Both the position numbers and the translations under genes were made by a program. From positions 1 to 64,000 of the forward strand of contig CAYQPU010000001.1 in the NCBI GenBank assembly GCA_964419615.1: a stretch of 64,000 nt of DNA, given 5' to 3'. The notes under the pieces were generated by a model. It worked only from the letters and a program-made list of their open reading frames with translations, was not told the DNA's origin and searched no databases. Each line of letters begins with the position of its first letter. Position 1 is the stretch's first letter. Of the stretch, positions 53,149 to 58,458 are shown piece after piece. This DNA comes from an uncultured Methanosarcinales archaeon. GTDB taxonomy: Archaea > Nanobdellota > Nanobdellia > Woesearchaeales > JAGVZT01.

Positions 53149-54306
53149 TTATAAGATATTATTTAATTCTTCTACTGTTCTATCAACATGTTCTTTTTGT
53201 ATTATTAATGGTGGTAGGAATCTAAGTACTGTTGATGATGCCGGAGCTGCTATTATTCCTTTTTCCTGAAGTTTTTTTAGGTATTCACTGCTTTTCTTTT
53301 TTAGATCTAGTCCTATCATTAGACCTGCTCCACGTACATCTCTTATCAGAGGAGAATCAAGATTGTTTAGTTCTGACATAAAGTAACTTCCAATTTCCTT
53401 ACTATGACTTAATAGGTTGTTTTGCTCAATGTAATTGATTGTTGCAAGGCTTGCAGCACATACTAATGGATTCCCTCCAAAAGTAGAGCTGTGAACACTC
53501 TTACCTACAGTTTCTGCAATTTCTTCAGTAGTGAGTGTTGCACTCATTGCAAGACCATTTGCTATTCCTTTGGATAAACAGATTATATCTGGTTCTACAT
53601 TGTAAAGTTCTGAAGCTGTCCAATGTCCTGTTCGAAATCCTGTTTGGACTTCATCAAAGATTAATACTGTTTCTGTGTCATTGCAGATGTCTCTAGCTGC
53701 TTTAAGGTATTGCTTTGTTGCAAGTTTTATTCCTGATTCTCCCTGGATTGGTTCAAGGATTAATGCGGCTGTATCTTTATTCACTGTTTCTTTTAATTCT
53801 TCCTCATCATTAAATCTGATTTGCTCAAAGCCAGGAATTAGTGGTAAAAATGGTTTTCTGTACTTAGGACTTGAAGTTGTTGCTGAGAGTGTAGCCAAAG
53901 TCTTTCCATGATAACCTAATTTTGCGGATATTATCTTTCTTCTTCCAGAATAGATCATTGAGAATTTTATAGCTGCTTCAACTGCTTCTGCACCAGAGTT
54001 TCCAAAGTAGATTCTATTTAGATTCTTGGGTGTAATACTGATCAATTTTGCTGCTGCTTTTTCACGGACTTTATTATGAAAACTCCAATGTATGTTTGAG
54101 ATTTTGGATAGTTGATCTGTGATTGCGCTGTTTATAGCTTTACAGTTATGACCCAAAATACTAACCCCAATGTTTGTCATTAAGTCAAGATATTTATTTC
54201 CCTTATCATCATATAGATAGACTCCGTTTCCTCTTGTGATGTTTAGTTCTCTAACTGGAAAGGTTGAGATCATTATTTTTTTATTATCTAAGTTTTCATT
54301 ATTCAT
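53149..54306 (-). CDS. lysJ: [LysW]-aminoadipate semialdehyde transaminase (class III PLP)
   Basis: NSGAEAVEAA, EPIQGESG, FDEVQTG, SKG, SSTFGGNP; cluster context. Confidence 0.88.
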   Translation of the reverse strand: MNNENLDNKKIMISTFPVRELNITRGNGVYLYDDKGNKYLDLMTNIGVSILGHNCKAINSAITDQLSKISNIHWSFHNKVREKAAAKLISITPKNLNRIYFGNSGAEAVEAAIKFSMIYSGRRKIISAKLGYHGKTLATLSATTSSPKYRKPFLPLIPGFEQIRFNDEEELKETVNKDTAALILEPIQGESGIKLATKQYLKAARDICNDTETVLIFDEVQTGFRTGHWTASELYNVEPDIICLSKGIANGLAMSATLTTEEIAETVGKSVHSSTFGGNPLVCAASLATINYIEQNNLLSHSKEIGSYFMSELNNLDSPLIRDVRGAGLMIGLDLKKKSSEYLKKLQEKGIIAAPASSTVLRFLPPLIIQKEHVDRTVEELNNIL

Positions 54307-55088
54307 TGTATCACAGTTCCTTTTTTTATATCTTTTATTGGGTGCTCAACTCTCCCATCTGTAATGTAAACTGTTGTTTGACTATTTTCAAATAGTTTTC
54401 TAAGGGCAAGGATTTTGCGTTTTATTCTGCCTTCTACTTGTTGCTCGCGCTGCTCTAATTCATCACAGTTTATTTCCTTTACAAGTGAATCAGGATCATT
54501 AAGATTATCTAATAAACCCTGAGCTTCTATTAATTGGATTATTTTGTCTGCAGGTATTGCTTGGTGAATTACATTTACTATATTATCATTTTCAGAGTTT
54601 ATTGCAAACCCATTTTCATCAACTATGGGTACAGTAATTACCGGAGTGTATCCATTATCTAATAATAGCCTGAGTAGGGCGGTGTTTACAGATTTTGGTT
54701 TACCTGAAAAATCTCTTACAATTTTTAGCTTGTTATTTTCTTTAATCCTAATCCCATTGTTTCTACTTCCTTGAATTAATCTTCCATCTAAACCAGTTAA
54801 ACCTATTGCGTTTATTCCATTTTGTTGACATAGTTCAACAATTCTTTTGTTTTTAAGGCCAGAGTATGCCATCATCATTATATCAAGGGCATCCTTGTCT
54901 GAGAATACACTTGAATAGCCAGATACTGATTGAATTGTTTTTTTTGGTTTGTCTAATTGCTCAGCAATTTTATCTCTTAGAGCATTTGCTCCATGAACTA
55001 TTATGAATTTTTCATCTAGTTCTGATAGATCCTTAATTATCCCTTCAATGTTAATATCTGCTCCTCCTCCAATCTTTACAATTATCAT
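54303..55088 (-). CDS. lysZ: [LysW]-aminoadipate/glutamate kinase
   Basis: IVKIGG, VHGA, SG..SVF.D, GRIKRK. Confidence 0.9.
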   Translation of the reverse strand: MIIVKIGGGADINIEGIIKDLSELDEKFIIVHGANALRDKIAEQLDKPKKTIQSVSGYSSVFSDKDALDIMMMAYSGLKNKRIVELCQQNGINAIGLTGLDGRLIQGSRNNGIRIKENNKLKIVRDFSGKPKSVNTALLRLLLDNGYTPVITVPIVDENGFAINSENDNIVNVIHQAIPADKIIQLIEAQGLLDNLNDPDSLVKEINCDELEQREQQVEGRIKRKILALRKLFENSQTTVYITDGRVEHPIKDIKKGTVIQ

Positions 55089-55744
55089 TTAAAACACCTT
55101 GTTGTGTTGTTAGGTATAGGTTTTGATTCATTGTTAAATTTTTCTGAACATATTACCAATTTGTCAGTTTCACTAAGGTGCATTGTGAAATATTCTGATC
55201 TTTCATTAAAATTTGTTGATAAAAATATGTTTTTAGTTTGCATATTTACAATTACCAAATTTATTGCTTTAACAGTATTTGTTCTACATACAAGATAATC
55301 AATTCCTTTTTTAATTGCATTTAATAAAGAATCTGATCCACTTGATTGTTGTAGTTCAGAGTCTCGAAATCTTTTGATAAGATTAAATATTTTTTCAGCA
55401 CCAATTCTTCCATGTTCCCTTATTCTAACTCCTCTTAATTCTCCATTAAACACAAAGACTAGTTCATTATCAGTAAACGGCATGTTGTTTTCAATTACTA
55501 TGTCTTTGTCTTCAAATGCACTTCTTGCATGAACAATTAGTAAGTTTGTTTTTTCAAATTTCTCAAAATCATCTTCCCAGATAGGATTAATGTTTTTGTA
55601 AAATTTCCAACCTCCTGAAAAAAAGGCACACCCCCAACCATGGCCTTGATACTCTTTGCTGTTTTGGCACAATTTAGCAAATTTTTCTAGATAGGGAGCT
55701 ATTTCAAACTCAGTGTTTGATTTGATTATTAGTATTCTACACAT
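55085..55744 (-). CDS. class II glutamine amidotransferase-like Ntn hydrolase (EgtC/YafJ/Dug3-like)
   Basis: N-terminal MCR nucleophile, HGWG, HARSA, NNMPF, FNG. Confidence 0.85.
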   Translation of the reverse strand: MCRILIIKSNTEFEIAPYLEKFAKLCQNSKEYQGHGWGCAFFSGGWKFYKNINPIWEDDFEKFEKTNLLIVHARSAFEDKDIVIENNMPFTDNELVFVFNGELRGVRIREHGRIGAEKIFNLIKRFRDSELQQSSGSDSLLNAIKKGIDYLVCRTNTVKAINLVIVNMQTKNIFLSTNFNERSEYFTMHLSETDKLVICSEKFNNESKPIPNNTTRCFK

Positions 55745-55760: not shown

Positions 55761-56792
55761 TTAAACTGGATGAAGGCCTGGAAATTCAAGTCCAAGGGTT
55801 TCTTTGAAACCACTCATTAGATTCATTGACTGAACTGCTTGACCTGCTCCTCCTTTCATTAGATTGTCAATAGCGCCCATTACAACTAACCGGTTTGATT
55901 TTGGATCTACCTCAAATCCTACTTCACATATGTTTGTTCCTGCAAGTATTTTTGGTTCAGGGTATCTATATACTCCAGTTCGCTTTTTTACTAGTCTTAC
56001 AAAAGGTTCATCTTTGTAGGCTTGCCGATATGTATTCCAGATTTGTTTTTCATCAACTCCATCTTTTAAAAAAAGGTGAGATGTTGCCAAGATTCCTCTT
56101 ATTAATTCAATTGAAGTTCCTGAGAAATGAACAGTTGGTTTGTGGCGAAAGTTTAGTTCTTGCTCTACTTCTGCTGTGTGTCTGTGACCTGTTGGCTTAA
56201 ATGATCTTACAGCATGTGATCTTTCTGAGTGATGCGAGGCAAGGCTTGGCTTGTTTCCTGATGCCGAGCTTCCTACCTTTGCTTCAGTGATCACTGTTGA
56301 TTCAACAAGGTTGTTTTTAAACAAAGGATATAGTCCTGTGATTGTTGCTGTGGCTAGACATCCTGTTCCTGCAACTAGATCTGCTTTTTTTATTTTTTCT
56401 CTATGTAGTTCAGCCATGCCATAAACAAATTTACTTAAGTATTCTGGATTAGGATGATCTTCACCATACCACTTTTGATAGTCTTCTTTTTGTCTTAATC
56501 TAAAGTCTCCGCTAAGATCAATTATTTTTCCTGCTTTTTGCTGGAGCTCTGTTATTTTTTTCATTGCTAATCCATGGGGCAGTGCTAAAAATAATATGTC
56601 TGATTCTTCTAGATCATTTATTGTTGAAAATTTCAAGTTGTGGCCTCGAAGGTTTGGATGTACATCATGGACAAATTTTCCTGCAAATCTTTCTGAGGTT
56701 ACTTGTTTTAGTTTTACTTTTGGATGTCCTAAGAGAAGTCTTACAGCTTCTCCACCTATGTAACCGCTCGCTCCAACTACACTTACTTTCAT
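55761..56792 (-). CDS. lysY: [LysW]-aminoadipate 6-phosphate reductase (ArgC family)
   Basis: GASGYIG, GCLAT, HRHTAE, DNLMKGGAGQA. Confidence 0.92.
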   Translation of the reverse strand: MKVSVVGASGYIGGEAVRLLLGHPKVKLKQVTSERFAGKFVHDVHPNLRGHNLKFSTINDLEESDILFLALPHGLAMKKITELQQKAGKIIDLSGDFRLRQKEDYQKWYGEDHPNPEYLSKFVYGMAELHREKIKKADLVAGTGCLATATITGLYPLFKNNLVESTVITEAKVGSSASGNKPSLASHHSERSHAVRSFKPTGHRHTAEVEQELNFRHKPTVHFSGTSIELIRGILATSHLFLKDGVDEKQIWNTYRQAYKDEPFVRLVKKRTGVYRYPEPKILAGTNICEVGFEVDPKSNRLVVMGAIDNLMKGGAGQAVQSMNLMSGFKETLGLEFPGLHPV

Positions 56793-57631
56793 TTTTTTGC
56801 CTCCTTGATTAAATAATTAACAATTTTTTCTGGAATATTAACTCCAGTTGTATCAATGCTGTTTCTAAATTCCATTGTATGATTGATTTCATTTATTATC
56901 ATTCCATTGTCTGTTTCAAATATATCCATTGCTAAGATTCCACCACCAACTGCTTTAGCAGCCTTTAAACAGATATTATTGATCTCTTCTGTTATTGGGC
57001 AGTTAGTTGCCGTGCCACCTCTTGCTGTGTTGGTTATCCAATGGTCTGAAGCTCTGTAAATTGCACAAATTGTTTCATTTCCTACTACAAATGCCCTTAT
57101 ATCCCTTCCTGGTTTTTTTATGTATTCATTAATAAAAAAAACTGAGTGATGGTATGAACCAAGTACTTGTTTGTGTTCAAGTACTGTTTCTGCAGCAGCT
57201 TCATTATCAATTTTTGACAAGAGTCTTCCCCAAGAACCTATTGCCGGTTTTAAGACTACTGGATAACCAAATTCTTGTATTGCTTTCATTGCGCTTTCCC
57301 TTGAAAATGCAACTTTCACTCTTACCGCAGGTACTTTGTTTTTTTCCAAAGCAAGTGTTGTTAATATTTTATCTCCACATGTTCGTACTACTTTTGGTTT
57401 ATTTACTATTTTTATATCATGATCATCTAGGATTTTTGTGATATGTCTTGATCTTGAAAAATTGATGCTTCTATCTATTATTATATCTGTTTCAAAGACT
57501 GGTGTTTTTTCCAAACAAAAAGTTAAATCTCTATCATCAATTCTTACTAATTCAGCTTTGCTCTTCTTTATAGTCTCAAATAGTAATTTCTCTTCACGTC
57601 TAACCCTTGAGCATATGACTCCAATTTTCAT
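56789..57631 (-). CDS. lysX: alpha-aminoadipate--LysW ligase
   Basis: GSWGRL, HWITNTARGG, EINHTMEFRNS. Confidence 0.88.
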   Translation of the reverse strand: MKIGVICSRVRREEKLLFETIKKSKAELVRIDDRDLTFCLEKTPVFETDIIIDRSINFSRSRHITKILDDHDIKIVNKPKVVRTCGDKILTTLALEKNKVPAVRVKVAFSRESAMKAIQEFGYPVVLKPAIGSWGRLLSKIDNEAAAETVLEHKQVLGSYHHSVFFINEYIKKPGRDIRAFVVGNETICAIYRASDHWITNTARGGTATNCPITEEINNICLKAAKAVGGGILAMDIFETDNGMIINEINHTMEFRNSIDTTGVNIPEKIVNYLIKEAKK

Positions 57632-58458
57632 TTTAGGCTCACCATGTAATCTATAATATCATCTGTTATTTTTTCATCTAGATGAGGGAAGTAAACACTA
57701 AATTCAGGTGTATAATCTACTTCTAACACTTGTATTCCTTTACGAGATTCAAGCATATCAACACATACAAAATCTCCGTTTACTGCATTTTTTGCCTTTA
57801 AGGCCAATTTTTTGATTTTTGGAGTGACTGTGCATTTAGATATGCTTGCTCCTTTGTCTATATGAGTTATCCAATGTTTTGAATTACGGTAAATTGCATA
57901 TACTTTGTTCCCTACAACAAATACCCTTATGTCTCTGCCGTGTTTCTCAATGTATTCTTGAACATAGTATACTGAGTGGTGATATGTTCCAAGATTCTTT
58001 TTATGATAGACAATTGCTTCAGCTGCTTCTTTATCATTGATTTTTGCAAGAAGTTTACCCCAAGAGCCAATGGCTGGTTTTAGTATGACTGGGTAACCCA
58101 TTTCCTCGATTATATCAAGTGCTTTTTCTGGTGTGAAGGCTATTTGTACTTTTGGTGTTGGAATTTTGTTCATGATTAAGGCTTCTGTAACTGAGAACTT
58201 GCTGCCGCAGATTTGAGCAGTTCTACCTGAGTTTACTGTTTTTACTCCAAAACTGTTTAGAATATTAAGTGCATACATTGCTGTTAAATGATTCATGCAT
58301 CTTTCTAGAACAATATCATGATCAAATCCATTTTTTCCTATGTCAAATAGTAGATCTTGCACTTTAATTAAGTCTAGTTCAATGCCTTTTTTATTAGCTG
58401 CAGCTATTAGAAGCTTTTCATCTTTTCTAATTCGCTCATATAGCATTCCAATTTTCAT
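57628..58458 (-). CDS. divergent LysX/ArgX-family ATP-grasp ligase
   Basis: GSWGKL, RDIRVFVVG, but HWITHIDKG and EVDYTPEF. Confidence 0.8.
   Translation of the reverse strand: MKIGMLYERIRKDEKLLIAAANKKGIELDLIKVQDLLFDIGKNGFDHDIVLERCMNHLTAMYALNILNSFGVKTVNSGRTAQICGSKFSVTEALIMNKIPTPKVQIAFTPEKALDIIEEMGYPVILKPAIGSWGKLLAKINDKEAAEAIVYHKKNLGTYHHSVYYVQEYIEKHGRDIRVFVVGNKVYAIYRNSKHWITHIDKGASISKCTVTPKIKKLALKAKNAVNGDFVCVDMLESRKGIQVLEVDYTPEFSVYFPHLDEKITDDIIDYMVSLK

Follow-up and report, generated by a model that had tools for sequence, protein, structure and literature searches.

The question raised by this locus is how an operon of the LysW pathway delivers its finished amino acid when it contains no gene for the known release enzyme. 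The window, i.e. the whole stretch of DNA that was analysed, comprises 64,000 nucleotides of an uncultured archaeon deposited under Methanosarcinales and placed by GTDB in the Woesearchaeales (positions 1 to 64,000 of contig CAYQPU010000001.1, assembly GCA_964419615.1). Descriptions of the LysW pathway, which leads to lysine and arginine, include a single release enzyme, the M20 metallohydrolase LysK. The window operon consists of eight tightly packed genes, all on the minus strand, in the order lysW-hcs-lysX-lysX-lysY-GAT-lysZ-lysJ, where GAT is the gene (55085..55744) of a standalone cysteine N-terminal nucleophile (Ntn) hydrolase with the fold of class-II amidotransferases. Based on comparative sequence evidence, we consider it likely that this hydrolase is the release enzyme, which cuts the product off LysW and so does the job of LysK; that it also deamidates, in vivo, LysW proteins encoded with a terminal Gln has in our estimate about an even chance. 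The locus probably represents a variant of the LysW pathway in which an EgtC-like cysteine Ntn hydrolase takes the place of LysK and Gln-capped carriers are also activated.

Two models of LysK were used, TIGR01902 (cut-off 163.1) and NF003367 ([LysW]-lysine hydrolase). The TIGR01902 cut-off is reached in 4 of the 14 control genomes; it is not reached in the genome of the window itself (1.48 Mb, 99% complete), where 95.7 bits is the best score, nor in Acanthopleuribacter pedis or any of the 36 bacterial genomes with a hydrolase-containing LysW cassette. Also, three LysW genomes from the phylum of the window (G087, G129 and G230; completeness 96-98%, G230 being a single 1.16-Mb contig) contain no LysK and no Peptidase_M20 match in the whole genome. 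All three have a ten-gene operon of the order lysW-hcs-aconitase large subunit-aconitase small subunit-isocitrate/isopropylmalate-type dehydrogenase-lysX-lysY-GAT-lysZ-lysJ, which in G129 lies one open reading frame (ORF) from the gene of a class-I lysyl-tRNA synthetase. All the carrier-dependent steps except release have a gene in these operons; the one gene with no assigned step is that of the hydrolase. Concerning the genome of the window, no diaminopimelate (DAP) decarboxylase is found above the cut-off, so its lysine should come from the window operon.

Homologues of the hydrolase number more than 3,100, are about 211 amino acids long and are distributed across DPANN archaea, Acidobacteriota, Gemmatimonadota, Thermodesulfobacteriota and Proteobacteria. 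The 37 bacterial loci recovered come from species-representative genomes of Thermodesulfobacteriota/'Deltaproteobacteria', Gemmatimonadota, and Gamma- and Alphaproteobacteria. The hydrolase is found beside LysW-pathway genes in all 37, and directly after lysY wherever the stretch includes lysY. The complete order lysW-lysX-lysY-GAT-lysZ-lysJ is present in 30 loci; among the other seven, five are cut by a contig end or have no lysW match, and two (L022 and L031) have no lysZ-lysJ downstream. In these two gammaproteobacterial loci (of G018 and G027, respectively) the cassette is lysW-lysX-lysY-GAT and ends at the hydrolase, and the lysZ-like genes of G018 sit elsewhere on its chromosome. The flanks are unrelated between loci, which makes the bacterial cassette a self-contained unit.

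The same association is seen in the phylum of the window, for which 201 genomes of 0.5-1.9 Mb were sampled. LysW above the cut-off is found in eight of them, and these are exactly the eight with a strong orthologue of the hydrolase; both genes are on one contig in seven genomes and on separate contigs in G192. A ninth genome (G174) contains a second subtype of the hydrolase, which begins MCRFLL, has the motif 'G-S-I-G-S-Q-K' (also with Gly at the Asp position discussed below) and follows lysJ in an operon that is truncated by the contig start. This subtype is also the last gene of an operon of Acidobacteriota (L163), and the slot after lysJ is the position of LysK in many LysK-type operons. 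Counting both subtypes, the hydrolase is present in 9 of 9 LysW genomes of the phylum sample and in 0 of the 192 others. Co-location with LysW holds as well for A. pedis and for seven genomes of Acidobacteriota. The gene context of ergothioneine synthesis (egtA/B/D) is present at none of the loci examined, the neighbours of the hydrolase being LysW-pathway genes.

A metagenome scan with a LysW alignment, in which the search pattern left out the last residue, gave 80 loci. In 31 of these lysY and lysZ are present with no hydrolase between them, and in many of the 31 an M20 gene follows lysJ or is inserted between lysX and lysY. Both operon types are also present in a sample of 251 Acidobacteriota genomes. 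Six M20 genes from operons without the hydrolase were scored and are true LysK (NF003367, 330-404 bits; TIGR01902, 242-308 bits), and a search with both subtypes as queries found no divergent hydrolase in the gaps of the LysK-type loci. The hydrolase and true LysK are thus mutually exclusive in the LysW operons examined. The identity of LysZ to that of the window is 47-63% in hydrolase-type operons vs 33-40% in LysK-type ones, and based on this split the two operon types are separate lineages.

Looking at the protein itself, the hydrolase has 219 amino acids in a single domain and begins MCRILII, with Cys directly after the start Met; this Cys2 is invariant in 47 homologues. A synthase domain is absent, the conserved neighbours are only the standard LysW-pathway genes, and profile scans gave no M20 match. 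The model predicted with AlphaFold2 from the 47 homologues is confident, with a pLDDT (predicted local distance difference test) of 92.5 and a pTM (predicted template modelling score) of 0.90. The top matches of this model in Foldseek are the EgtC structures 4zfj, 4zfk and 4zfl (TM-score 0.72-0.77, 16% identity), followed by the glutaminase domains of PurF and GlmS, 1te5 and 3mdn; E-values for the EgtC, PurF and GlmS domains range from 3e-11 to 1e-6, and the modelled structure has the Ntn alpha-beta-beta-alpha fold. The invariant positions of the family alignment include Cys2, Arg74 (equivalent to R73 of GlmS), Asn100-Gly101 (N98-G99 of GlmS) and many others. The anatomy of the original prediction, a Cys2 nucleophile with class-II amidotransferase motifs and no synthase domain, is therefore what the sequence contains.

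The family departs from its relatives at one motif. In class-II amidotransferases the conserved Arg binds the alpha-carboxylate and the Asn-Gly pair forms the oxyanion hole, and in the enzymes that use glutamine the Asp of the TDSE motif (D123 of GlmS) holds the free alpha-amino group of glutamine. We aligned (MAFFT) the family with LysW-unlinked paralogues from DPANN archaea, E. coli YafJ and the glutaminase domain of GlmS, and the three catalytic motifs are in register. The motif 'G-x-T-D-S-E' is G-R-I-G-A-E-K in the hydrolase, with an invariant Gly (Gly115) at the position of the Asp, which is kept in YafJ, 1te5, 3mdn and GlmS. As a cross-check with HMMER, the alignments of the paralogues to 1te5 and 3mdn keep TDSE, and GETDSE of YafJ aligns with SETDTE of GlmS; a profile-profile comparison of the hydrolase family with the glutaminase domain of E. 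coli GlmS gave no match (probability 0.5%). The retention of Arg together with the change of Asp to Gly fits a gamma-glutamyl group at the C-terminus of a protein, where the alpha-carboxylate is free and the alpha-amino group is not. The pocket, in which Gly would leave room, thus appears to fit what is expected of an enzyme directed at LysW, and the same change argues against free glutamine as the substrate. Since both the alpha-amino site and a synthase partner are missing, the hydrolase is not a canonical glutamine amidotransferase.

Compared with known systems, the closest is EgtC of the ergothioneine pathway (TIGR03442), which cleaves a gamma-glutamyl amide bond and releases the amine partner. 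EgtC is the best structural match, is likewise a standalone Cys2 Ntn enzyme of about 220-230 amino acids, and has the chemistry proposed for the hydrolase; the differences are the low identity (the 16% given above), a score of 30.1 bits against a cut-off of 218.65 (27-39 bits for the cassette orthologues), the location in a LysW instead of an egt operon, and the proposed gamma-glutamyl donor, which would be the C-terminal residue of a protein. The HMMER alignments to EgtC end before the alpha-amino Asp motif, and no true EgtC is present in the genomes reached. Both score and context place the hydrolase outside the EgtC family; 'EgtC-like', as it had been called, holds for the nearest solved fold only. 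Another class-II amidotransferase-like protein, the Dug3 subunit of yeast, acts on a gamma-glutamyl peptide. The fold, Cys1, Arg and Asn-Gly are shared with GlmS, PurF, YafJ, PA1307 (1te5) and SPO2029 (3mdn), from which the hydrolase differs in the lack of a synthase partner, in having 'RIGAEK' for 'TDSE' and in its Pfam scores, which are below the gathering thresholds (GATase_4, 20.3 bits against 23; GATase_6, 20.6 against 27). With LysK (NF003367/TIGR01902) it would share the reaction and the place in the pathway, down to the LysK-like slot of the second subtype; LysK is a di-metal M20 enzyme, whereas the hydrolase would act through a Cys thioester, and the two folds are unrelated, with no sequence similarity.

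The genes of the window operon, from lysW downstream, are the following (all cut-offs are those of the models named):

59585..59746, minus strand: lysW, amino-group carrier protein of 53 amino acids with the tail EDWGQ (TIGR01206, 76.3 bits, cut-off 53.2; PF21344)
58455..59597, minus strand: homocitrate synthase, hcs/lysS (HMGL-like and HCS_D2 domains; TIGR02146, 368 bits)
57628..58458, minus strand: lysX paralogue 1, ATP-grasp ligase (LysX_preATP_grasp and RimK domains; TIGR02144, 271.6 bits)
56789..57631, minus strand: lysX paralogue 2, ATP-grasp ligase (TIGR02144, 327.9 bits, above cut-off)
55761..56792, minus strand: lysY, reductase (TIGR01850, the argC model, 396 bits)
55085..55744, minus strand: standalone Cys2 Ntn hydrolase of class-II amidotransferase fold, 219 amino acids (ORF, motifs and predicted model), candidate LysW gamma-glutamyl amidohydrolase
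54303..55088, minus strand: lysZ, [LysW]-aminoadipate kinase of the clade associated with the hydrolase (NF010659, 245.4 bits, above cut-off)
53149..54306, minus strand: lysJ, aminotransferase (Aminotran_3; TIGR00707, 404 bits)

Neighbouring genes overlap by 4 bases, the sole exception being a gap of 16 bases upstream of the 219-residue ORF. The stop codon of the hydrolase (TGA, 55087-55085) overlaps the ATG of lysZ (55088-55086) as ATGA; this overlap and the position between lysY and lysZ are as had been read from the sequence. For hcs the likely start is an ATG at position 59588, where start codon and lysW stop overlap as CAATGA. The 3' end of lysW reads GAT TGG GGT CAA TGA, i.e. D-W-G-Q-stop, and CAA is one base from a Glu codon. 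Records from 7 contigs contain the identical protein, which makes a read error at the Gln codon unlikely. The closest named LysW (word search, 39 close relatives returned) is 70% identical and belongs to a Candidatus Woesearchaeota archaeon.

The terminal Gln of LysW shows a distribution of its own. It is found in 16 of 49 hydrolase-type operons vs 0 of 43 LysK-type operons (Fisher p about 1e-5, a value that overstates the case, related genomes not being independent). The 16 are made up of 7 of the 33 bacterial cassettes, 3 of the 8 operons of DPANN archaea and 6 of the 8 of Acidobacteriota; the LysK-type operons without Gln comprise 31 metagenomic and 12 Acidobacteriota loci. In a profile search of 1.84 billion representative proteins, 12 Gln-ended proteins are found among the best 150 LysW listed, mostly on contigs too short for the operon type to be told; the two with readable cellular context (A. 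pedis, a contig of 2.96 Mb) both belong to hydrolase-type cassettes. On the tree of the hydrolase at least 9 changes between Glu and Gln are counted, of which at least 4 are forced by well-supported branches, and the LysW of a congener of the window genome (G096) ends in Glu. The other 33 of the 49 hydrolase-type operons also encode a LysW ending in Glu. Deamidation is accordingly not the main job of the hydrolase, since two thirds of its operons have nothing to deamidate at that end of the carrier.

The substrates and the chemistry that we infer for the hydrolase can be put as one reaction. The substrate would be the gamma-position of the C-terminal residue of LysW. After removal of the start Met, Cys2 would attack the gamma-carbonyl and the leaving group would depart; the gamma-glutamyl thioester formed on the enzyme would then be resolved by water to LysW-Glu. 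The leaving group would be lysine in the case of LysW-gamma-Lys, ornithine in cassettes that make ornithine, and ammonia in the case of LysW-Gln. One reaction could in this way do two jobs, the unloading of the finished amino acid and the uncapping of a Gln-ended carrier, the latter once per molecule. If the release enzyme also takes the Gln amide, the choice between Glu and Gln should be nearly neutral, and recurrent flips within one operon type are what this would predict. Small proteins encoded with a terminal Gln have a conceptual parallel: Dop deamidates the terminal Gln of Pup to Glu before ligation through the gamma-carboxylate, and also removes the conjugate. Dop differs in its glutamine-synthetase-like fold and is not homologous to the hydrolase.

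These results bear on the original prediction, in which the hydrolase was a non-orthologous replacement of LysK, a LysW deamidase, or both. Its first part appears well founded: the gene is fixed in LysW operons that have no LysK, is exclusive with true LysK and occurs in three genomes free of M20 peptidases. Its second part stands in a reduced form; a Gln-ended LysW found only with the hydrolase, the flips between Glu and Gln and the lost Asp are consistent with deamidation, but not as the main job. The combined proposal, that one enzyme both unmasks and unloads the carrier, appears in both halves compatible with all the comparative tests run.

Several points weigh against a hydrolase that replaces LysK. 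The genome of the window has two generic M20 genes of the ArgE/DapE family, scoring 95.7 and 63.8 bits on the LysK model, and by analogy either of them may moonlight in reverse on the reaction of LysK. Also, the cassette of three bacteria (G001, G018 and G030) is accompanied in the genome by canonical ArgB and LysA; in G007 the only homologue of ArgB is LysZ, and the product of the bacterial cassettes may differ between lineages. The sampling of operons without the hydrolase relied on similarity to hydrolase-type LysW and on a single phylum, and may miss lineages that have a Gln-ended LysW but not the hydrolase. None of the conclusions draws on the unpublished genome G389. Finally, the family assignment of the hydrolase is based on fold and motifs, because the Pfam and NCBIfam scores are below their cut-offs.

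The alternative closest to these points is that a generic M20 deacylase of the ArgE/DapE type does the job of LysK here and the Ntn hydrolase merely travels with the operon. The two M20 genes of the window genome would be candidates, even though both score below 163.1, and LysK and ArgE are homologous and promiscuous, the Thermus LysK acting also on acetylornithine (PMC12998189). We nevertheless regard this as improbable: M20 genes occur in 31 of the 201 phylum genomes and are uncorrelated with LysW operons, 4 of the 9 LysW genomes of that sample lack the ArgE/DapE type and the three genomes described above lack M20 altogether, whereas the hydrolase tracks LysW in 9 of 9 genomes against 0 of 192. 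One of the two genes is, moreover, placed in an arginine operon, between argH and carA-carB, and canonical ArgB is encoded on the same contig; the other adjoins serS. As the genome has this ArgB and a second ArgC but no ArgJ, the gene beside argH is most simply ArgE (acetylornithine deacetylase), and its reading as a hidden LysK was judged less likely given the arginine context and the M20-free relatives whose LysW operons contain the hydrolase. The spare M20 genes would equally serve a second alternative, in which the hydrolase is a dedicated maturase only, converting Gln-LysW to Glu-LysW as Dop does for Pup, and another hydrolase releases lysine. Such a role would be in line with the hydrolysis of amide nitrogen as the ancestral reaction of the fold and with the restriction of Gln-ended LysW, in the samples studied, to operons with the hydrolase; yet the gene is kept in the 33 of 49 operons whose LysW ends in Glu, and G087, G129 and G230 would be left with no M20 peptidase for the release. 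We give it little credence.

An editing or housekeeping hydrolase, which strips off adducts that are misloaded (LysW-Glu, for instance, where only lysine is made) or stalled, or tunes the pool of free carrier, would predict the same gamma-glutamyl chemistry and operon linkage, and could find use in those bacteria that have, in addition to the cassette, the complete canonical pathways of arginine and DAP. The need for a release enzyme would remain, however, and none is found in the operon, nor in three cases in the genome, while the second subtype after lysJ occupies the slot that LysK has in many LysK-type operons; this role is therefore held to be unlikely. Even less can be said for a true glutamine amidotransferase subunit, which hydrolyses free glutamine and passes the ammonia to a partner from the operon. 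The class-II fold is present with Cys, Arg and Asn-Gly intact, but there is neither a synthase domain nor a conserved partner beyond the standard LysW enzymes, the amino group is already supplied by LysJ, and the Asp that anchors the alpha-amino group is replaced by an invariant Gly, which together make such a subunit very improbable. There is also a slim chance that the enzyme is a gamma-glutamyl transferase on the protein carrier and not a plain hydrolase. In that case the alpha-amino group of an incoming alpha-aminoadipate or glutamate would resolve the LysW thioester, and finished lysine would be exchanged for new substrate without the ATP that LysX spends. The Gln encoded at the end of LysW would amount to a first charge that is already activated; Gln-LysW would then be a pro-carrier, with priming or a checkpoint built in, comparable to the priming of Pup by Dop.

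If the hydrolase is indeed the release enzyme, a large and phylogenetically wide set of operons would complete the LysW pathway by means of a cysteine Ntn hydrolase unrelated to LysK. The organisms that carry these operons would no longer be scored, in genome annotation and metabolic models, as lacking the last step to lysine, and the correction would cover small DPANN archaea, which are usually assumed to depend on a host. The activation of Gln-ended carriers, unusable by the known chemistry of LysX, would be explained, and LysW would join Pup, the substrate of Dop, as a second small protein tag that is deamidated before ligation. The change from Asp to Gly would also make it simple to recognise, by sequence, Ntn amidases whose gamma-glutamyl substrate is peptide-bound. 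Concerning previous work, no relevant paper linking LysW with an enzyme of the amidotransferase, Ntn, EgtC or YafJ type was found in the searchable literature, nor was 'EDWGQ'. A study of the Thermus pathway from 2025 gives LysK as the hydrolase, with no mention of another enzyme in this role (PMC12998189).

Further observations concern the other genes of these pathways. The M20 gene beside argH lies on contig C45 of the window genome (G000; L001:53-4085) in the order argB-argH-M20 deacylase-carA-carB with overlapping starts; the slot between argH and carA is unusual for an ArgE-like gene, and the phylum is mostly without amino-acid synthesis. Two LysK-type loci of the metagenome scan contain extra ORFs between lysX and lysY (L128:5006-5899 and L095:9022-9897). 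The product of the ORF in L128, which begins ...VVVAHPDDAEFGC, presumably resembles deacetylases of the PIG-L/LmbE type, and that of L095 resembles a HAD hydrolase; both could be further alternative release or editing enzymes.

LysW-type zinc ribbons are also found away from LysX, LysY and LysZ. In L135:3424-3603 (NODE_409, a 42-kb contig of the European Nucleotide Archive) a ribbon ending EEDWGQ has dozens of tiny ORFs around it, together with genes of a dCMP deaminase, RtcB and a Lar-like protein, and no LysX/Y/Z nearby; the contig looks like a phage genome, and the ribbon like a virus-borne mimic of the carrier. The loci L166-L183 of Acidobacteriota (e.g. L168:9020, L172, L180 and L181) contain LysW-like ribbons without LysX/Y/Z neighbours, whose tail is a long run of Asp and Glu ending in Tyr or Glu (e.g. 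...DDDDEY) and not EDWGE; these appear to be a separate family of acidic-tailed ribbons. A Gln-ended LysW (P0206; L184:2347-2541) is found alone on a contig of 4.5 kb, flanked by a patatin-like gene and by unannotated genes and with no adjoining LysX.

Of the two lysX genes in the window, paralogue 2 is orthologous to the one present in the bacterial cassettes, which have a single lysX (51-59% identity). The tandem paralogues (56789-58458, minus strand) are also present in a relative (G136, L045). The second ligase is not obviously ArgX, and the genome also has canonical ArgB, ArgC and the ArgE-like M20 protein. A promoter and terminator scan of the operon gave 29 promoter-like sites vs 31 expected. 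Upstream of lysW and divergent from it is the gene of a DUF7523 protein (60017-60673, plus strand), a possible regulator of the operon; a DUF7523 protein is likewise found at L131:3255-3884, beside another Gln-ended LysW on an archaeal contig.

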